Source: an uncultured Candidatus Saccharibacteria bacterium
Lineage (GTDB): Bacteria > Patescibacteriota > Doudnabacteria > UBA920
Reading direction: 5' to 3'
Length of the DNA stretch: 64,000 nt
Assembly (NCBI GenBank): GCA_964594755.1
Contig: CAZQMO010000004.1
Location: 4,311 to 68,310, forward strand
Positions 1,938 through 61,848 of the stretch are shown in pieces (the stretch's first letter is position 1; each line of letters opens with the position of its first letter). The notes below the pieces were generated by a model, which saw nothing but the letters and a program-made list of their open reading frames with translations, was not told where the DNA came from and ran no database searches. Made by a program: the position numbers and the translations under genes.

Positions 1938-4112
1938 TTACTTCGGCCAGTTAGCTGTAAGCAGTAACTTTTCTTTGACTAACTTATGTTCAACAAGTTG
2001 TTGCCAAATTACTTCGGTAACAAATGGCATGAATGGATGGAGGAGTTTAAGAATGGTTGTTAAGACATGAAGTAAGATCGCTTGAGTGTTTTCCTTTTGG
2101 CTTTCATCTGCAAGTTGAGCTTTACTAGCTTCGATGTAAACATCAGCGAATTCTTTCCAGGTAAAATCATATAATGCCTGCGCAGCTTCATGAATTCGGA
2201 ATGCAGTGAGATGTTCATTAGCAGATGTAATCGCAGTAGCAAGTTGTTCAAGAATTAATTTATCTGAATCAGTCTTGGCTTCAGGATCAGCGCTGGGCTT
2301 GCCATCAAGGTTGGTAAGAATAAAGCGCGCGATATTCCAAAGTTTATTACCAAAGTGCTTCATACCTTTAATCTTGTCTTCGGCCAGTGGGATGTCATTG
2401 CCAGCTGCAGTAGAAAAGATTAAAGCAAAACGCAATGCGTCGGTGCCATAAGTGTCAATCACACCAAGTGGGTCAATTACGTTACCTTTACTCTTACTCA
2501 TCTTTTGGCGATCTTTATCGCGAACCAAGCCGTGCAAGAACACAGTTTCAAATGGTGGTTTGCCGGTGCGATAGTAAGACAACATAATCATCCGAGCTAC
2601 CCAGAAGAACAGAATATCCCAGCCAGTTTCCATGACCTGAGTAGGGAAGAAGGTATCGATATCTTTAGTGCCCTTTTTGGAATCATTGGCCATCAAAGTT
2701 GCGTACGGCCACTGCCCAGAAGAGAACCAAGTGTCAAAGGTATCTGGGTCGGCAGTTAGCTTGGTAGAGGAGCATTTTGGACACTCTGAGAGGCTATTTT
2801 CGGTGTCTATAACCACTTCTTGGCAATCCTCACAGTATTTGGCTGGAATCGGGATTCCCCACCAAATTTGGCGAGAAATAGGCCAATCACGGATATTTTG
2901 CATCCAGTGGAAAAAGGTCTTTTCAAAGCGGGGATTAAGGATTTTAACTTCACCATTTTTTACCCCTGAAACCGCCATATCACGAAGGGAAGGCCGGCCA
3001 TCAGGCAATTCTTTGGTCATGGCAATATACCACTGGTCAATGACTTGTGGCTCAATGATGTTATTGCACTTATAACAAACTTGAACATTGTGTTTGTAAT
3101 GTTCGTCAGTCTTGTCATCAAGAAGCAACCCTTTTTCGCGAAGTTTTTCTACAATCTTTGGCCGGGCTTCGGCAATTTTCATTCCTTCAAATTCACCGGC
3201 AATCGGCAGGAGCTTGCCGCGCAAATCAATGATTTGTTCAAAATCTAAATTGTGCCGCTTGGCGATTTCAAAGTCAGTAGCATCGTGCCAAGGTGTAATC
3301 GTCATTACACCAGTTCCGAATTCCATATCAATGGCGTCGTCTTTGATGATGGTTGCAGTGACTGGACCGTTAATCCACTCAACTTCAATTTGCTGACCGT
3401 CTTTATACTCTGCATAGCGTTTGTCATCTGGATGCATAACAATATATTTATCACCGAACTTGGTTTCTGGTCGTGCTGTGCCAATGACAAATGGACCATA
3501 CTGTAAGTAGTAGAAAGGATCTTGACGCTCTTCGTACTTAGTTTCCAAATCAGCTAAGTTGGTTTGATGTTTTACACACCAATTACAAATGCGGCCACTA
3601 CGATAAACCAAACTATCGTCATGTAATTGTTTGAAGGTTTCATAAACAATCTTCACTACCTCAGGGTCTAAAGTGAAAGTGTTGCGGCTCCAGTCGCAAG
3701 AAATACCAAGACGCTTAATACCTTCTTCGCTAATGTGTTTGTTGTTTTGTACAAAATCCCAGATCTCTTTATAGAACTCTTCGCGTTCCATAGCAAAGCG
3801 ACTACGTTTTTCTTTTTCAAGTTTCTTTTCGAACACGACTTGAGTTTCAAAACCAGCGTGGTCAGTGCCAGGCAAATAAAGTGCGCGACGGCCTTGCATG
3901 CGTTGCCAGCGAATAAATATATCTTGAATAGTCAATCCTAAAGCATGACCCACGTGCATAGGCGCGTTGGCATTAGGCGGCGGCATGATAATCGTAAATG
4001 GATCACCAGCATTTTTTAAATTGTCTGGATTAAAAAAGCCAGAGTTTTGCCAAAGTTCATAAATTTTGGATTCATGGTCCGTGGCATTATAATTTTTTTC
4101 GAGTTCTTTCAT
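1938..4112 (-). CDS. valS: valyl-tRNA synthetase (class I aaRS)
   Basis: PPPNANAPMHVGHA (HIGH motif), GTDHAGFETQ and KMSKSKGNV are typical of ValRS. The start is probably the internal ATG (MKELEK...) at 4112; the ORF-track extension to 4190 translates a GC-rich leader. Confidence 0.85.
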   Translation of the reverse strand: MKELEKNYNATDHESKIYELWQNSGFFNPDNLKNAGDPFTIIMPPPNANAPMHVGHALGLTIQDIFIRWQRMQGRRALYLPGTDHAGFETQVVFEKKLEKEKRSRFAMEREEFYKEIWDFVQNNKHISEEGIKRLGISCDWSRNTFTLDPEVVKIVYETFKQLHDDSLVYRSGRICNWCVKHQTNLADLETKYEERQDPFYYLQYGPFVIGTARPETKFGDKYIVMHPDDKRYAEYKDGQQIEVEWINGPVTATIIKDDAIDMEFGTGVMTITPWHDATDFEIAKRHNLDFEQIIDLRGKLLPIAGEFEGMKIAEARPKIVEKLREKGLLLDDKTDEHYKHNVQVCYKCNNIIEPQVIDQWYIAMTKELPDGRPSLRDMAVSGVKNGEVKILNPRFEKTFFHWMQNIRDWPISRQIWWGIPIPAKYCEDCQEVVIDTENSLSECPKCSSTKLTADPDTFDTWFSSGQWPYATLMANDSKKGTKDIDTFFPTQVMETGWDILFFWVARMIMLSYYRTGKPPFETVFLHGLVRDKDRQKMSKSKGNVIDPLGVIDTYGTDALRFALIFSTAAGNDIPLAEDKIKGMKHFGNKLWNIARFILTNLDGKPSADPEAKTDSDKLILEQLATAITSANEHLTAFRIHEAAQALYDFTWKEFADVYIEASKAQLADESQKENTQAILLHVLTTILKLLHPFMPFVTEVIWQQLVEHKLVKEKLLLTANWPK

Positions 4113-7175: not shown

Positions 7176-7365
7176 TGATGCTGAGTCTTCGGTTAAAGCG
7201 CTCAATGTTTGAGACCGCTCGCTTCTTCCTCACCAGCACCCAAGGCTCAAATATATTAGCATAAAGTTCTGCTATTTTCCATACCAAAGAAGCAATCCGA
7301 ACTACGTTCGATTCTTCTATAAACATTACCAACAAAAAATCGCCACTGGCGTGACGATCTTTTGT

Positions 7366-7402
7366 TGGTAGGCATCGTCTGAACGGTTGGAAAGCTTATT
7401 TG
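7366..7402 (+). repeat. 37-nt direct repeat, copy 1 (upstream of membrane-protein gene 7469)
   Basis: tggtaggcatcgtctgaacggttggaaagcttatttg; copy 2 at 7920-7956 differs at one position. Confidence 0.8.
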
Positions 7403-7468
7403 TTCTTAGTTAGGCAAATTTAGGGTATAATATAGTTAAAGTTAATTATTAAAAATTAATATGAATTT

Positions 7469-7919: not shown

Positions 7920-7956
7920 TGGTAGGCATCGTCTGAACGGTTGGAAAACTTATTTG
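7920..7956 (+). repeat. 37-nt direct repeat, copy 2 (upstream of membrane-protein gene 8079)
   Basis: tggtaggcatcgtctgaacggttggaaaacttatttg. Confidence 0.8.
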
Positions 7957-8078
7957 GCTTTGGTAAGGGAGTTATATAGGTGCTTAATTCAAGCGGGTAT
8001 CCATTGAGGGTTGAAAACTCCTTGATGGCTTGAGTAAACCAAGTCTAGTATAATATACTTAGCAATTAATATAAGACT

Positions 8079-11988: not shown

Positions 11989-12108
11989 AAGTATGTCATT
12001 CCTGGGCCCACCGCAGGTAGGAACCGGGAATCCACTAGACAGTCAAGATAATTTAATAGATCCCCGGTTCTCCTCGCTTTGCTCGGGGACCAGGGGTGAC
12101 CAAATAAT

Positions 12109-13320
12109 ATGAACAATCCCTTTGAATCAGCCAAGCGGCAACTCCAGGCAGCGGCCGACGTAGCCAACTTGGATAAAAACAAAATTGACGAATTGATGCA
12201 TCCAGACCGGTATATTGAGGTTTCAATTCCAGTACAAATGGATGACGGGTCTCAAAAAATTTTTGAAGGTTTCCGCAGTCAGCATAACAATGCCCGAGGT
12301 CCATACAAAGGGGGTATTCGTTACCACCAAGATGTAAATTTAGACGAGGTGCGCGCTTTAAGCTTTTGGATGACTTTTAAGAATGCAGTCATTGACGTTC
12401 CTTTTGGCGGAGGCAAGGGCGGCATTATTGTAAACCCTAAGGAATTATCTGAAGTTGAGTTAGAAAAACTCTCCCGCGGCTATATGCAAAAAATGTTTCG
12501 CAATTTTGGCCCGGAAATAGATGTGCCTGCTCCAGACGTAAACACTAACGGCCAGATTATGGGCTGGATGCGTAACGAGTACGAAAACCTGACCGGCACT
12601 GTCGCTCCAGGGGTGATTACTGGCAAAGCGATAGAAGATGGTGGCAGCGAGGGTCGCACCGAAGCAACTGGGTATGGCGGGGGATATGTTTTACGCGAAG
12701 CTTTGAAGGCAGGGTTAGTATCGGATGATCGCAAGACTATCGCTGTGCAAGGGTTTGGTAATGTAGCGACTTACTTGGCCGAGTATGTTAAAGAGCATGG
12801 CTTTAAGGTGGTTGCTTTATCCGACAGCAAGGGCGGAGTGTATAACGAAGCTGGTATTGATATCTCTGCGGCCGAAGCACATAAAAAGGCCACAGGCTCT
12901 TTGAATGGCTTGGAAGGTGCTACTTCTATCACCAACGAGCAGTTATTAGAACTAGATGTCGAAGTTTTGGTACCAGCGGCATTAGAAAATGTTATTACTA
13001 AAGTTAATGCTGCAAAGATTAAAGCTAAGCTGATTTTGGAAATGGCCAATGGCCCAACGACACCTGAGGCCGACCAGATTTTGCAAGATAATGGCGTTGT
13101 GGTAATTCCAGATATCTTGGCCAATAGCGGTGGCGTCTGCGTGAGTTATTACGAATGGTATCAGAATATGCATAATGAAAAGTGGGCCAAGCAGGATGTT
13201 TTGGCCAAGCTTGATGCGCAGATTACCAAGGCATTTGCAGATGTTCTCGCAGGCTCAAAACAGCATGCTACTTCACTTAGAACAGCAGCCTATATAGTCG
13301 CCGCCGAGCGAATTATCTGA
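12109..13320 (+). CDS. gdhA: NAD(P)-dependent glutamate dehydrogenase
   Basis: GGGKGG catalytic motif (PFGGGKGGI), GFGNVATY Rossmann motif, ~400 aa ELFV dehydrogenase. Confidence 0.85.
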   Translation: MNNPFESAKRQLQAAADVANLDKNKIDELMHPDRYIEVSIPVQMDDGSQKIFEGFRSQHNNARGPYKGGIRYHQDVNLDEVRALSFWMTFKNAVIDVPFGGGKGGIIVNPKELSEVELEKLSRGYMQKMFRNFGPEIDVPAPDVNTNGQIMGWMRNEYENLTGTVAPGVITGKAIEDGGSEGRTEATGYGGGYVLREALKAGLVSDDRKTIAVQGFGNVATYLAEYVKEHGFKVVALSDSKGGVYNEAGIDISAAEAHKKATGSLNGLEGATSITNEQLLELDVEVLVPAALENVITKVNAAKIKAKLILEMANGPTTPEADQILQDNGVVVIPDILANSGGVCVSYYEWYQNMHNEKWAKQDVLAKLDAQITKAFADVLAGSKQHATSLRTAAYIVAAERII

Positions 13321-13344
13321 GAAATGTAAGAACAAAGCCAGTCG

Positions 13345-15275: not shown

Positions 15276-15374
15276 ATTTTATTACTATATTCATTCTCAA
15301 ATATCTATGTCATTCCGTGAATGCGGAACTTCATTCTTTGATTTTATGATTTAGAATTTTTAATTGTAAATTAG

Positions 15375-15474
15375 CCGTCCACTTTTTCGGGGGCGCTCTC
15401 GCGGCTTATCCAGTCAAATCCGCATAGATTTGACTGGGCCGCTGGCGCTAGCTTACCCCCTCTTAAGTGGACGG
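15375..15474. repeat. GC-rich nested-hairpin element downstream of rpsR
   Basis: Outer 10-bp IR ccgtccactt / aagtggacgg; inner 11-bp IR ccagtcaaatc / gatttgactgg; GC-rich interior. Confidence 0.5.
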
Positions 15475-15493
15475 CGGGAAGTAGTAAATGCTG

Positions 15494-16254: not shown

Positions 16255-16435
16255 CCGAAGTTGTGGCCGCTGATTTTCAGTCTGGGGGACCCAGACTTCT
16301 AATCAGCCCTTGTCCGATAGCTGTGTTATTTTCCTCGCTGCCCACTCGGCGTACGTTTCAGTACGCGCCGTGTTCAGCTCGGAAAATGCCTTGCTCTCGG
16401 CCAAGCCAAAACTTCTTGATTAATGGTTTAAGTTT
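16255..16435. repeat. GC-rich structured spacer between rpsF and ssb (multi-hairpin element)
   Basis: Hairpins ctgatt-ttc-agtctggg-gga-cccagact-tct-aatcag and gcgtac-gtttca-gtacgc; outer IR gaagttgtggc / gccaaaacttc. About 180 nt at roughly 55% GC inside an AT-rich operon. Confidence 0.45.
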
Positions 16436-17130: not shown

Positions 17131-17270
17131 TTGAAGAGGAAGTGGACCACGTCGCCGTCGCGTCAGACTTGCCTTGCCCCGTTCGCTACTGGCTAAAGCC
17201 AATAGCTCACTAAGCTCGGAAGTCTTCCTTTATCCAAATCACTTAACCCTTTAGGTCCAAGTGATTTGGA
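17131..17270. repeat. GC-rich element in ychF 3' region, diverged family member
   Basis: ccccgttcgctactggct and gctcactaagctcgg resemble the ccgctactcgctggc / cggctcactcgttgctcg modules of A/B/C; terminal 11-bp IR ccaaatcactt / aagtgatttgg. Confidence 0.4.
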
Positions 17271-37093: not shown

Positions 37094-37588
37094 ATGGACA
37101 ACGAACAAGAAGACAAATTGGAGTTTGATGAAGCAGGTTTAGCTCGCAAACTCGAAGAAGCTAAAGAAGAAGCGCGTACCAATCTTGGTGGATGGCAACG
37201 TGCGCAAGCAGATTTTGAAAACTACAAGAAGCGCGAAGAAGCTAAACAGAAAGAAATCTTGGAATTCGCCAAAGAAGTTACCATTGTAAAGCTGTTACCA
37301 ACTTTGGACAGTCTCCAGCAAGGTCTCAAGCATGTCCCGCAGGATGTAGACCAGGCTTGGCTCCGTGGCATCAATGGCACTCTCACTCAGCTAGATAAAG
37401 TGTTAACAGAACTAGGTGTAAAGAAGATTGAAGCTTTAGGGAAGCATTTCAATCCAAATTTTCACGAAGCAGTTCGCGAAGTACCTGGGGATGAAGACGG
37501 TTTAATAGTTGAAGATTTACAAACCGGGTACGAATTGAACGGCAAGGTCATCCGACCAAGCCAGGTAGTAATAAGTAAGAAAGCGTAG
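37094..37588 (+). CDS. grpE: nucleotide exchange factor GrpE
   Basis: Coiled-coil N-terminus (WQRAQADFENYKKR), C-terminal beta domain; adjacent to dnaK. Confidence 0.85.
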   Translation: MDNEQEDKLEFDEAGLARKLEEAKEEARTNLGGWQRAQADFENYKKREEAKQKEILEFAKEVTIVKLLPTLDSLQQGLKHVPQDVDQAWLRGINGTLTQLDKVLTELGVKKIEALGKHFNPNFHEAVREVPGDEDGLIVEDLQTGYELNGKVIRPSQVVISKKA

Positions 37589-37669
37589 AAATTTGTGAGC
37601 TTGGCCAATTTCTTTGTCGCCAGCTCCGCTACTCGCTGGCTTCGCGAACTTGGCACAATTCACAAATTT
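37589..37669. repeat. GC-rich IR-bounded element, copy A (minimal form) in grpE-dnaK spacer
   Basis: aaatttgtgagcTTGGCCAATTTCTTTGTCGCCAGCTCCGCTACTCGCTGGCTTCGCGAACTTGGCacaattcacaaattt. Terminal IR aaatttgtga..ttggcc / ttggc..tcacaaattt. The core is 36/37 nt identical to copies B and C. Confidence 0.8.
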
Positions 37670-37695
37670 CTAATCATTATTAAGGAATCAATTAT

Positions 37696-50430: not shown

Positions 50431-50459
50431 TTGACAAAATAGCTATTTTGAGGTACAAT
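50431..50459 (+). promoter_or_regulatory. consensus sigma-70-type promoter
   Basis: TTGACA-17 nt-TACAAT. Confidence 0.6.
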
Positions 50460-50465
50460 TCCAGC

Positions 50466-50880
50466 ACAAAACTTAATTGTTTGACCAAGTTTGGTCTTGC
50501 GCCAGACTGTAAAGTGGTAAAGAAAAGTTTTGAAAATTTGTCTTCAGTATCCTACTTGTAAGTCGCGAGAGCGGGGATCATCCCTCCTATTTCTCCGCTA
50601 GTAGCGGTTAAGCAGAGACTTCGCAGCGATTGCTGTGTGCCTCTCACTTGCAGGTGGGGTAGTGAAGATAAAAACCATCAAACCATCTTCTACTGTTTGT
50701 TCATGAGGCTTCGCCGCTTTGCGGCTGCAGATTCATTCTCAAACAGTAGCAGATGGTTTTTATCTTCTTGGGAGAGAGGGTTTTGGAATACAGCTGCAGA
50801 TTGGTTCACAAACAATAGCGGGATTTTTATCTTCACAGGGATAGTGGGAAAACTAATACCGGCCTGGGCCGGTTTTAGTT
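50466..50880 (+). ncRNA. candidate ~410-nt structured noncoding RNA (unclassified)
   Basis: Consensus promoter, many short GC hairpins, a 107-nt IR hairpin (gtgaagataaaaaccatc ... gatggtttttatcttc), a 49-nt tandem duplication (50728-50776 and 50794-50842) giving alternative pairing partners, and an intrinsic terminator accggcctgggccggttttagtttt. The only ORF (87 aa, W-rich) is implausible. No RNase P, tmRNA, 6S or SRP signature seen. Confidence 0.4.
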
Positions 50881-53858: not shown

Positions 53859-53872
53859 ATTATAGGACTTAC

Positions 53873-53987
53873 ATTTTTGGCCAATTTCTTTGTCGCCAGC
53901 TCCGCTACTCGTTCACCGTTCCGCCAGCTGGCGGATTCACTACGGCTCACTCGTTGCTCGCTAGCTTCGCGAACTTGGCTCAAAAAT
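53873..53987. repeat. GC-rich IR-bounded element, copy B (long form) in der-LCP spacer
   Basis: atttttGGCCAATTTCTTTGTCGCCAGCTCCGCTACTCG-[ttcaccgttccgccagctggcggattcactacggctcactcgttgctcg]-CTAGCTTCGCGAACTTGGctcaaaaat. Terminal IR atttttggccaa / ttggctcaaaaat. Same plus-strand orientation as copy A although the flanking genes are on the minus strand. Confidence 0.8.
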
Positions 53988-54067
53988 CTAAGCCCGGGTT
54001 GGTCAATAATTATTAATTATTCCACTTTCTGAGAACTGGGTGGCTTAACTGAATTTTAAATATATAT

Positions 54068-55698: not shown

Positions 55699-56307
55699 AT
55701 GTCAGAACAAAAAATTGTAATCGAATCTGCTACCGAACAAGATCAACAGGCTACCACTGGATCATTCTTATGGGAATTAATCCGCATAATCATAGTTGCT
55801 TTTGTATTAATGGTAGGATTTAGAATTTTTGTAGCCGAACCGTTCGTGGTCTCCGGTTCTTCGATGGTGCCAAACTTCCACAACAAAGAATATTTAGTTA
55901 TCGACAAAGTCACTTACCGTTTTGGTGAGCCAGAACGTGGCGATGTGATAGTTTTTAAGTACCCAAAGGATACTTCTCAATACTTTATTAAACGAATCAT
56001 CGGTTTACCGGGAGAAAGAGTTCAAATAGATGATGGGAAAGTAGTAATATTTAATTCCGAACATCCTGACGGTATTACTATTACGGAACCTTACTTACCT
56101 GGTAACGATGCAACGTTTGGAAAGACAGATATCGTGAGTTTGGGTAGCGGTGAATATTATGTGTTAGGGGATAATCGTTTAGCTTCGAGTGATTCCCGCG
56201 TTTGGGGGGTATTGCCCGAGCGTAACATAGTAGGTCGTGCCTGGCTCAGAGCCTTCCCGATTTCTGAGTTCGGCTTACCAAAGTTCCCAGACCCAGTATT
56301 GAACTAA
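55699..56307 (+). CDS. lepB: signal peptidase I
   Basis: TM helix, SGSSMVP catalytic Ser box, KRIIGLPGE Lys box, GDNRLASSDSR box. Confidence 0.85.
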   Translation: MSEQKIVIESATEQDQQATTGSFLWELIRIIIVAFVLMVGFRIFVAEPFVVSGSSMVPNFHNKEYLVIDKVTYRFGEPERGDVIVFKYPKDTSQYFIKRIIGLPGERVQIDDGKVVIFNSEHPDGITITEPYLPGNDATFGKTDIVSLGSGEYYVLGDNRLASSDSRVWGVLPERNIVGRAWLRAFPISEFGLPKFPDPVLN

Positions 56308-56310
56308 GTA

Positions 56311-56429
56311 TGATTCCTGGATTTGCCCAATTTCTTTGTCGCCAGCTCCGCTACTCGTTCACCGTAGCTTTCACTACGGCTCACTCGTTGCTCGCTGGCT
56401 CCTCGAACTTGAACTAACCAGAAATCATC
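56311..56429. repeat. GC-rich IR-bounded element, copy C (intermediate form) in lepB-hisZ-like spacer
   Basis: tgattcctggatTTGCCCAATTTCTTTGTCGCCAGCTCCGCTACTCG-[ttcaccgtagctttcactacggctcactcgttgctcg]-CTGGCTCCTCGAACTTGaactaaccagaaatcatc. Terminal IR gattcctgg / ccagaaatc. The internal module equals B's minus the ccgccagctggcgg palindrome. Confidence 0.8.
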
Positions 56430-60368: not shown

Positions 60369-60501
60369 AAAATAAAACGAAAACGCAAAAATAACAACTG
60401 ACACCGCAGGTGTCATCCTGAGCGAACCCTAGTTACCCAAAGGTGAGTCGAGGGAGCTCTGCTATCGATAGCCATATTTGTTATTTTGCGTTTTATTTTT
60501 T
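60369..60501. repeat. MITE-like element in ftsA-ftsZ spacer (AT-rich ~22-bp terminal IRs, GC-rich core)
   Basis: Left aaaataaaacgaaaacgcaaaaataacaa versus right (reverse complement) aaaaaataaaacgcaaaataacaaa. Core contains hairpin tgacacc-gca-ggtgtca and a ttacccaaa direct repeat. Confidence 0.5.
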
Positions 60502-61738: not shown

Positions 61739-61762
61739 ACCCCGCCTTACGGCGGGGTTTTG
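61739..61762 (+). terminator. rho-independent terminator
   Basis: accccgccttacggcggggtttt. Confidence 0.75.
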
Positions 61763-61782: not shown

Positions 61783-61848
61783 TTCGCTGGCTTCCGCCTC
61801 GGCTCGTCTAGGCGAGATGGGCCGCGAACTTGAGCAATTTTTGAATTG
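61783..61848. repeat. partial copy (3' half) of the A/B/C element with a further nested insertion
   Basis: cgctggcttc-[cgcctcggctcgtctaggcgagatgggc]-cgcgaacttgagcaatttttgaattg aligns to A's ctcgctggcttcgcgaacttggcacaattcacaaattt. Confidence 0.55.

Follow-up and report, generated by a model that had tools for sequence, protein, structure and literature searches.

Probable insertion-polymorphic hairpin repeats in the intergenic spacers of an uncultured Candidatus Saccharibacteria genome

Element copies and their sites

The DNA analyzed here, hereafter the window, is a 64,000-nucleotide stretch of contig CAZQMO010000004.1 from an uncultured Candidatus Saccharibacteria bacterium, and its subject is a dispersed intergenic element that folds as a hairpin with one purine-rich strand, the minus strand of the window. 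An original prediction, made from the letters of the sequence, had described three copies (A, B, and C) and a partial one (D); a fifth, diverged copy (E) was matched by a covariance model, R1, built from the purine-rich strand of six full copies. Exact matches to the 30-nt core, CAATTTCTTTGTCGCCAGCTCCGCTACTCG, number three in the window, all on the plus strand, at 37606 (A), 53882 (B), and 56328 (C), with zero occurrences expected in shuffles. The exact core shared by three intergenic loci is therefore real, although 31 nt rather than the predicted 37 nt are identical in all three, with 35 nt shared by A and B and 39 nt by B and C. The common 3′ module, CTGGCTTCGCGAACTTGG, is present as described, at 37636, 53961, and 56395 with zero, one, and three mismatches, and the size series also held: C exceeds A by 37 nt, and B equals C plus 12 nt and carries CCGCCAGCTGGCGG. 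The GC fraction of the elements is 0.48-0.57 against 0.42 for the window, not the roughly 60% in a roughly 40% genome first reported. All nine copies and remnants found in the window and in related genomes are intergenic, and the five window copies share one orientation, on the strand with positive GC skew. With its filters off, the covariance model found nothing else in the window above noise.

Copy A (37588..37670, minus strand) lies in the grpE-dnaK spacer of an hrcA-grpE-dnaK operon, beginning at the last base of the grpE stop codon and ending 26 nt before the dnaK start. It consists of a 63-nt deletion derivative of the core (37598-37660) enclosed by a perfect 11-bp locus-specific outer stem, GAAATTTGTGA/TCACAAATTTC, and scored 51 bits against the covariance model, with 37 model positions missing. 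Two sites at this copy match promoter consensus, and consensus only: on the plus strand (37650-37677) the element end TTGGCA could serve as a −35 box facing dnaK, and on the minus strand (37702-37673) TTGACA-18-AATGAT would start transcription at the purine-rich strand. We rejected a CIRCE/HrcA operator at this position, as the inverted repeat of A differs from TTAGCACTC-N9-GAGTGCTAA.

Copy B (53865..53995, minus strand; 93 bits) occupies the spacer between the LytR gene and der, both on the minus strand, so that its purine-rich strand is sense; a full core (53874-53985) carries the apical mini-palindrome insert CCGCCAGCTGGCGG (approximately 53919-53937) and is extended by a locus-specific outer stem. 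Copy C (56310..56428, minus strand; 111 bits) starts 3 nt past the lepB stop codon in the lepB-hisS spacer, upstream of hisS, and comprises the locus-specific outer stem ATGATTCCTGG/CCAGAAATCAT and a full-length core (56320-56419) whose apical loop reads GAAA on the minus strand. Most of copy C is flanked by a 9-nt direct repeat, TTGAACTAA, at 56299-56307 and 56408-56416, one unit of which is the end of lepB including its stop codon, while the other stands in place of the consensus 3′ terminus of the element. This repeat could represent microhomology used in insertion, or it could be a coincidence.

Copy D (61783..61848, minus strand), located past the ftsZ terminator (stem 61740-61757), is a remnant in which the 5′ half is absent and the 3′ module, GCTGGCTTC / CGCGAACTTGAGCAA in plus-strand reading, is split by a 28-nt hairpin insert (61795-61822), in agreement with the earlier account of a partial copy after ftsZ carrying another insert. 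Its fold was no better than that of shuffles, and the covariance model returned no match to it. Copy E (16307..16407, minus strand) matched the model at 47.3 bits (E approximately 3e-8) with many compensatory pairs; it has the helix and loop architecture of the other copies, differs in sequence in the otherwise invariant arm, and shares its apex, GTACGTTTCAGTAC, with the post-ftsZ copy of a related genome (L023, below). Copy E is situated in the rpsF-ssb spacer of an rpsF-ssb-rpsR operon, between minus-strand genes, and its purine-rich strand is accordingly sense.

The Rfam search of the window found only three tRNAs at gathering score and nothing overlapping B or C at E ≤ 10, so a known RNA family, which had been set out as grounds for abandoning the original prediction, was not found even at that threshold. 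A group II intron domain V, suggested by the similar minus-strand apex GAGCCGUAGUGAAAGCUACGGU, was rejected because Rfam returned no such match even at E ≤ 10 and because the apex varies from copy to copy. Consensus scans detected neither a terminator-like site at A, B, C, or E, where no T-run follows the hairpins, nor a promoter-like site adjoining B, C, or E. Integron attC sites were also rejected: there are no RYYYAAC/GTTRRRY core sites, the copies lie between housekeeping genes of conserved order and not in cassette arrays, and no integrase was found, although the elements do present an attC-like strand-specific imperfect hairpin. We did not detect transposase, integrase, reverse-transcriptase, or HUH domains in the 44 window open reading frames (ORFs) that were domain scanned (some 25 others were not scanned directly), nor among the Pfam families listed for genes in approximately 150 kb of related loci syntenic to window 27-64 kb. 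The original statement that no transposase is present thus holds for the 44 ORFs.

Hairpin structure and strand asymmetry

Every copy forms one long hairpin, the unit being an interrupted hairpin of approximately 100 nt with four helices and 35 pairs. In an alignment of eight copies, which was fitted to the covariance model and so favors the structure, 89.9% of pair cells hold standard pairs and both partners change in 19 of the 35 pairs; not one of the pairing measures was reached in 500 shuffles, and slid controls were 28-39% paired. Independent MAFFT/RNAalifold analysis of seven sequences returned the same helices, with covariation at 8 of 30 pairs. Seven copies from four assemblies carry one arm, GGAGCTGGCGACAAAG(A/T)AAT, without variation, and its partner arm drifts with pairing kept. 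The conserved core termini are near-palindromic (TTTGSCCAA...TTGGSCAAA), and the apical loops are GAAA or UGAAAC (GNRA-like).

The two strands are far from equivalent. As RNA, copy B folds at −63.9 kcal/mol on the minus strand vs. −42.5 kcal/mol on the plus strand, and copy C at −58.2 vs. −34.7 kcal/mol, the minus-strand RNA-fold z-scores being approximately −8; with DNA parameters the asymmetry runs in the same direction. Over at least 15 pair positions in eight copies, the purine-rich strand has 24 G.U pairs vs. 4 A.C, which correspond to G.U on the other strand, and most of the G.U pairs place U in the variable 5′ arm facing a conserved G. Internal-loop residues number 79 G, 111 A, 11 C, and 1 T (approximately 94% purine), and the loops are symmetric 5′-GA/5′-GA tandem mismatches in CGAG-type contexts; sheared G.A pairs in tandem form stably in RNA and in DNA alike. 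The selected structure is that of one strand, the purine-rich minus strand of the window, and the original prediction, reading the opposite strand, overlooked it. A symmetric protein acting on a duplex palindrome would not give these strand features, and neither would neutral decay, and because the GC skew of the window predicts the opposite bias, deamination is disfavored as its cause. Relative to the neighboring genes, the copies with a sense purine-rich strand are B, E, and those at L023 yqeY-ftsA and in L035, and the copies with an antisense one are A, C, D, and the L002 and L023 post-ftsZ copies described below.

Gain, loss, and nesting in related genomes

Syntenic loci were taken from seven related assemblies by means of homologs of LepB, GrpE, and S18 and their encoding contigs. 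L-numbers label loci from related Saccharibacteria-type assemblies, with L027 and L002 belonging to one assembly and L039 coming from the L023 genome. At site B, the der-LytR spacer is 209 bp in the window, 3-13 bp in L019, L023, L027, L029, and L035, and 71 bp in L032, where it holds an unrelated hairpin; at site C, the lepB-hisS spacer is 166 bp in the window and a 14-40 bp element-free spacer in L019, L023, L027, L029, L032, and L035. B and C are therefore missing from six related assemblies with conserved gene order. The grpE-dnaK spacer of site A, 107 bp in the window, is 4 bp in L041 and is replaced by a 48-codon ORF in L038 and a DUF3467 gene in L039; copy A is absent from all three, including L038, the closest grpE-dnaK relative found (GrpE 91% identical). 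At site E, the rpsF-ssb spacer is 199 bp in the window vs. 55 bp in L044 (S18 93% identical). In the nearest relatives retrieved, the spacers at A, B, C, and E are thus short and lack the element, providing the empty sites that the original prediction had proposed looking for, and the window copies are therefore lineage-specific. As an observation on the grpE-dnaK spacer itself, its content is variable: the L038 ORF (1422-1568) encodes a hydrophobic tail, and the L023 genome has a second DUF3467 copy past dnaK in addition to that at L039 10503-10799.

BLAST and the covariance model identified full copies elsewhere in these genomes: L023 13341-13440 in the yqeY-ftsA spacer, L023 16189-16289 past ftsZ, and L035 3305-3405 in the dprA-pth spacer. 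L023 and L035, which are 86% identical in DNA over lepB-hisS, differ at all three of these sites, indicating three gains or losses between close relatives, and the two L023 copies are 3 kb apart in opposite orientations. Copies are gained and lost over short evolutionary time and occur in either orientation relative to genes. A replication-oriented insertion rule, suggested by the single orientation within the window, was rejected on account of the L023 pair. The L002/L027 genome has the family but no copy at sites B, C, or D. The sequence of D can be aligned to that of the intact copy past ftsZ in L023, over its 3′ end and right flank (CGCGAACTTGRGCAATTTTTGAATTG), which identifies D as a decaying copy; a similar remnant is present in L029, and L027 is empty.

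The same 28-31-nt core is found at non-orthologous spacers in four assemblies, between which ordinary intergenic DNA is unalignable. The occurrence of the core at such spacers in L002, L023 (two), and L035, together with the empty orthologous sites, bears out the earlier argument against a simple untranslated-region motif, and copies at non-orthologous spacers of other assemblies argue against the local segmental duplication that would have undone the original prediction. Flanks common to copies are limited to one accessory hairpin, module 2 (E and L035), and one 10-mer (L023 and L035), and no target motif was seen. Upstream of the L023 yqeY-ftsA copy (13185-13340), we observed a direct repeat of approximately 50 nt of the left flank and element start and two truncated element starts, GTTTGACCCAGTAGTGAGCG and GTTTAGTCAAGTTCGC, resembling a cluster of partial tandem copies.

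The dprA-pth spacer provides a filled and empty pair. L035 has exactly 166 extra nt (3296-3461) relative to L023, with aligned flanks, and the empty L023 junction is TATCACA|ATTTGTC, with no target duplication of 2 nt or more; insertions can thus be precise and leave no target duplication. The 166-nt insert consists of AAACTTATTCG, the main hairpin, module 2 (AAGTCTGG..CCAGACTG), and ..CGAAAAGTTTTGGAG, and the outer ends of this composite pair with each other. In the window, module 2 is a small hairpin, AAGTCTGG...CCAGACTGAAAA on the minus strand (16274..16298), directly 3′ of E on the purine-rich strand, as it follows the main hairpin in L035 (z = 6.9 for the comparison of E and L035 flanks). 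It also stands alone, lacking the main hairpin, in a 67-nt insert at 50469..50535 on the plus strand (AAACTTAATTG...AAAAGTTTTGAAA), between a sigma-70-like promoter and a conserved 137-nt small RNA (sRNA) candidate. The content of this sRNA site varies from none in L019 and L023 through 22 nt in L029, 67 nt in the window, and approximately 81 nt in L032 to 166 nt in L035; in five assemblies CACA closes the left flank of this site, and no common motif was seen at the other copies.

The sRNA candidate is an observation in its own right. It lies between dprA and pth, is conserved (window 50431-50672, plus strand; L019 3226-3400; L023 5030-5204; L029 4006-4202; L032 5325-5579; L035 3462-3598), and is predicted to form a 26-bp closing stem and two hairpins, one loop being the invariant C-rich CAUCCCUCCUAU. 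Its sigma-70-like promoter reads TTGACA-17-TATACT or TACAAT, a terminator lies downstream, 6 of 50 predicted pairs covary among five sequences, and Rfam gave no match at E ≤ 10. Past it in the window (50673-50765) is a hairpin with long arms, AAAACCATCTTCTACTGTTTG / CAAACAGTAGCAGATGGTTTT, and a 40-nt GC-rich loop, at a position where the relatives have a short simple terminator.

Beyond the shared core, five of eight copies have locus-specific complementary flanks, at −8.7 to −18.9 kcal/mol compared with −4.2 ± 3.6 kcal/mol for mismatched flank combinations; read from sequence, wobbles and purine-purine mismatches in these outer stems occur only on the purine-rich strand. The AT-rich bounding inverted repeats that the original prediction took for shared termini are real, and the longer ones around A, B, C, and the L002 copy differ at each locus, so they are not shared terminal repeats. 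TA stands on both sides of the 11-bp inverted repeat at A, and at A only. Pre-existing terminator hairpins were rejected as targets for A, B, and C since the empty sites of relatives are 3-14-bp spacers lacking a hairpin, which implies that the stem extensions came with insertion or arose later.

Nested insertion was detected at three places. The apical 19-mer of B, CCGCCAGCTGGCGGATTCA, recurs in an unrelated hairpin of another species (L032 2437-2455). In the ftsA-ftsZ spacer (window 60373-60500), an AT-rich inverted repeat, AAAATAAAACGAAAACGCAAAAATAACAA / TTGTTATTTTGCGTTTTATTTT, has arms that are invariant in all six assemblies compared and a loop of 22-28 nt in five relatives vs. approximately 80 nt, GC-rich, in the window, indicating insertion into the loop of a conserved hairpin. 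With the split in D, these cases show that hairpin-in-hairpin insertion is real, and growth by palindrome insertion, as originally proposed, applies to them; it does not apply to A, which had been placed at the start of the series. The form of approximately 100 nt is conserved across species and A lacks 37 positions between two CTCG motifs, so A is a deletion derivative and not ancestral. Decay therefore takes the form of internal deletion in A and of truncation with nested insertion in D, and copies often lie in or beside other hairpins or have locus-specific stem extensions.

Other hairpins are abundant in the same spacers. The post-ftsZ spacer contains two further, different GC-rich hairpin families (L019 15869-15985 / L035 15858-15902 / L029 14591-14680), one of which, CACGGCAGGG...CCCCGCCGTG, is in L019 and L035, the third family being in L029 and the L027 spacer being empty; three hairpin families across species mark this spacer as a hotspot. 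An unrelated GC-rich hairpin of approximately 100 nt at rpsR-efp (window 15374-15475) folds at approximately −61 to −63 kcal/mol on either strand, in a spacer of 218 bp in the window vs. 20 bp in L044. Additional long intergenic hairpins are found at window 17160-17230, 11995-12100, and 7313-7372; that at 17.2 kb has GA-type loops and folds at −45.8 kcal/mol on the minus strand vs. −33.7 kcal/mol on the plus strand, and the covariance model did not call it a family member. A 49-nt direct repeat, 88% identical, occurs at 7366-7414 / 7920-7968, 554 bp apart.

Among 185,579 species-representative genomes, the exact core 20-mer is present at one true locus, L002, a full element upstream of rpmI in a metagenome-assembled genome labeled uncultured Candidatus Saccharibacteria; a second match in the collection was rejected as a chance hit. 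A scan of JGI metagenomes with the core gave only chance hits in high-GC contigs, and scans of viral contigs and of phage and plasmid records were negative, from which the family appears not to be carried on mobile replicons.

Interpretation and comparison with known repeats

We regard these repeats as very probably a non-autonomous, insertion-polymorphic hairpin family. The fuller account that we favor, with moderate confidence, is of lineage-restricted, non-autonomous intergenic hairpin repeats of REPIN/ERIC-like kind that are copied in trans, probably via a single-stranded intermediate. The original label of a selfish element resembling miniature inverted-repeat transposable elements (MITEs) or repetitive extragenic palindromic (REP) sequences was right in pointing to a dispersed, noncoding, non-autonomous repeat, and its MITE component is not supported, because the bounding inverted repeats are locus-specific and not shared terminal inverted repeats (TIRs) and because no consistent duplication was seen. 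By analogy with known systems, the invariant arm and hairpin may be what a trans-acting enzyme, encoded at some other place in the genome, recognizes, and copying may proceed through a single-stranded DNA (or RNA) hairpin intermediate, as in REP/REPIN-RAYT systems and the “peel and paste” of IS200/IS605, with effects on neighboring genes being incidental; we advance this mechanism tentatively, as possible but rather doubtful.

Several points weigh against the account of REPIN/ERIC-like repeats copied in trans. No mobilizing enzyme was identified in the scanned ORFs and loci, and the mechanism is argued by analogy. Copy number may be low, given one exact 20-mer locus in species-representative genomes and none in JGI metagenomes. 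With different internal loops in its two arms, the element does not consist of one REP doubled in inverted orientation, and the window copies are co-oriented but the L023 pair is opposite, which leaves no clean orientation rule of the IS200/IS605 type. The locus-specific stem extensions of five of eight copies are predicted by no standard transposition mechanism. Finally, an RNA fold far stabler than the DNA fold and GNRA-like apices make an RNA role or intermediate as compatible with the data as single-stranded DNA. An altogether new type of mobile element, which would travel as a folded single strand of DNA or RNA, integrate in or beside hairpins, and build its locus-specific stem extension without a conventional transposase, seems to us a long shot; such an element might exploit host handling of single-stranded DNA (competence, DprA/SSB, or replication restart), and if it existed, would amount to a “parasite of hairpins,” one that, along with several sister families, takes up the intergenic spacers of a Patescibacteria genome minimal in other respects.

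A competing explanation that still counts is a role at the RNA level: the hairpin is much more stable when folded as RNA, and a promoter precedes the L035 copy. The repeats would then be a structured noncoding RNA or cis-acting RNA family with a host function (protein sponge, processing or stability signal, or antisense), the purine-rich strand being the transcript. Strong covariation, the confinement of G.U pairs and tandem G.A loops to one strand, the GAAA or UGAAAC apical loops, and the minus-strand z-scores of approximately −8 all suit a transcript, as do the L035 copy, which is in sense orientation directly downstream of the sigma-70-like promoter as a 5′ extension of the sRNA candidate, the TTGACA-18-AATGAT match that would start transcription at the hairpin of A, and the operons at B, E, and L023 yqeY-ftsA, in which the purine-rich strand is sense. 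Against this, its orientation over all copies is four sense to five antisense, B, C, and E have no flanking promoter-like or terminator-like sites, copies decay (A and D), and Rfam has no match at E ≤ 10; moreover, the window copies are missing from orthologous spacers of close relatives, including those in essential operons, so none is required there. On balance, we judge a host-function RNA family unlikely, though deserving of serious attention. Intrinsic terminators or attenuators of the upstream genes would account for the start of A, C, and the L002 copy 0-10 nt past a stop codon, but neither strand has a T-run past the hairpin, and at A, B, C, and E the consensus scan was negative. The genuine terminators of this genome, such as that at 61740-61761 past ftsZ, combine a short GC stem with a T-run; in addition, the hairpins are absent in relatives, and termination would do harm at A and E, which are internal to the hrcA-grpE-dnaK and rpsF-ssb-rpsR operons. 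Together, these points make this explanation barely tenable.

The remaining alternatives concern how the DNA itself was copied. Classical MITEs, deletion derivatives of DDE-transposase insertion sequences moved by double-stranded cut-and-paste with TIRs and target duplications, as in ERIC, Correia, and RUP, would be in keeping with the near-palindromic termini TTTGSCCAA...TTGGSCAAA, the TA flanking both sides of the 11-bp inverted repeat at A, and the 9-nt direct repeat TTGAACTAA at C, and the size and intergenic location fit ERIC-like units with TIRs, stem-loops, and TA duplications (PMC2759123). The filled and empty pair in L035 and L023, though, has no duplication of 2 nt or more, TA flanks are found at A only, and the outer inverted repeats are different at every locus; one-strand purine loops and G.U pairs are not expected of an element recognized as duplex DNA, and neither the 44 scanned window ORFs nor the Pfam families listed for related loci include a transposase domain. 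In the DNA that was analyzed, no insertion sequence that could be the parent was found. We therefore consider classical MITEs improbable. Non-mobile palindromes, made or enlarged by template switching during local replication or spread by segmental duplication or gene conversion, would explain the locus-specific stem extensions, the hairpin-in-hairpin inserts at the B apex, D, and the ftsA-ftsZ loop, the partial tandem copies beside the L023 yqeY-ftsA copy, and the many unrelated long hairpins in other window spacers. Yet the same 28-31-nt core at non-orthologous spacers of four assemblies is not so explained, as local template switching cannot independently make one sequence at many sites, and the copies have no common flanks except module 2; the distribution across loci and species appears already to have largely refuted this explanation, which we hold to be very improbable.

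Proteobacteria and Firmicutes are well known to carry small palindromic repeats dispersed over their genomes. In Saccharibacteria and other Patescibacteria, whose genomes are very small and densely packed, little selfish DNA is expected, and here several spacers that are 3-55 bp in sister genomes have become 107-209 bp by hairpin insertion, including spacers in the hrcA-grpE-dnaK and rpsF-ssb-rpsR operons. The family provides sensitive strain markers and probably gives rise to assembly breaks in metagenome-assembled genomes, and its one-strand signature of purine-only loops and an invariant arm offers a handle for finding the copying enzyme or an RNA-level process. On present evidence, no general principle is changed.

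Of the known systems, REPINs mobilized by RAYT (Y1 HUH) proteins are similar in being extragenic, approximately 100 nt, and non-autonomous, with a long hairpin predicted as single-stranded DNA or mRNA, a conserved recognition sequence with a less conserved, compensatory remainder, precise presence or absence without target duplication, and tandem or partial clusters at some sites. Compensatory changes in the hairpins, precise excision, and tandem clusters have been described for REPINs (Bertels & Rainey 2011, PMC3116915). A REPIN consists of two inverted copies of one REP 16-mer with a spacer between them, whereas in the elements described here a single arm carries the invariant ~20-mer, with no reverse complement of it in the opposite arm; the two arms share only the GCCAGC/GCTGGC and CCAA/TTGG helices, and their loops differ (5′-GCGAA vs. 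5′-GACAAA). REPINs are known mainly from Proteobacteria and not Patescibacteria, and for the present family no RAYT, which in REPIN systems is a single-copy gene with REPs on its flanks, was found in the scanned ORFs and loci and copy number is apparently low.

ERIC (also IRU or RU-1) and related MITE-like repeat units of enterobacteria, and the Correia elements of Neisseria, are likewise imperfect palindromes of approximately 70-170 bp that are intergenic, often transcribed, found in either orientation, and folded into stable stem-loops, with size variants that arise by internal deletion or insertion at set positions and with possible incidental promoter-like sequences. In both ERIC and Correia, the copies have TIRs in common that end in TA, and insertion duplicates the TA (PMC2759123), whereas the present elements have locus-specific outer repeats and no consistent duplication, and ERIC and Correia lack the marked one-strand purine-loop asymmetry. 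IS200/IS605 elements and palindrome-associated transposable elements (PATEs) would resemble this family in the strand-specific recognition of imperfect single-stranded DNA hairpins and in seamless insertion and excision with neither TIRs nor duplication, the lack of duplication being observed here at one site. They differ in having two different subterminal hairpins, at the left and right ends, and inserting 3′ of a fixed tetra- or pentanucleotide, where we find one long hairpin and could establish no fixed target motif; no TnpA was found in the scanned ORFs and loci, and there is no consistent replication orientation, L023 having both.

Pneumococcal BOX elements, Rickettsia palindromic elements (RPEs), and the GC clusters of yeast mitochondria have no sequence relationship to the family, but like it they are GC-richer than the host genome, are built of modular sub-hairpins, proliferate in a small genome, and nest mutually or in hotspots. 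BOX is composed of boxA, boxB, and boxC modules with tandem boxB repeats, and RPEs often insert in-frame in genes, where no copy of the present family lies. Literature searches returned no description of such repeats in Saccharibacteria or Patescibacteria and nothing relevant on IS200 in Saccharibacteria. As far as found, the family is new in its sequence and host phylum and of a well-known general kind, with a one-strand signature that is unusual among such repeats.

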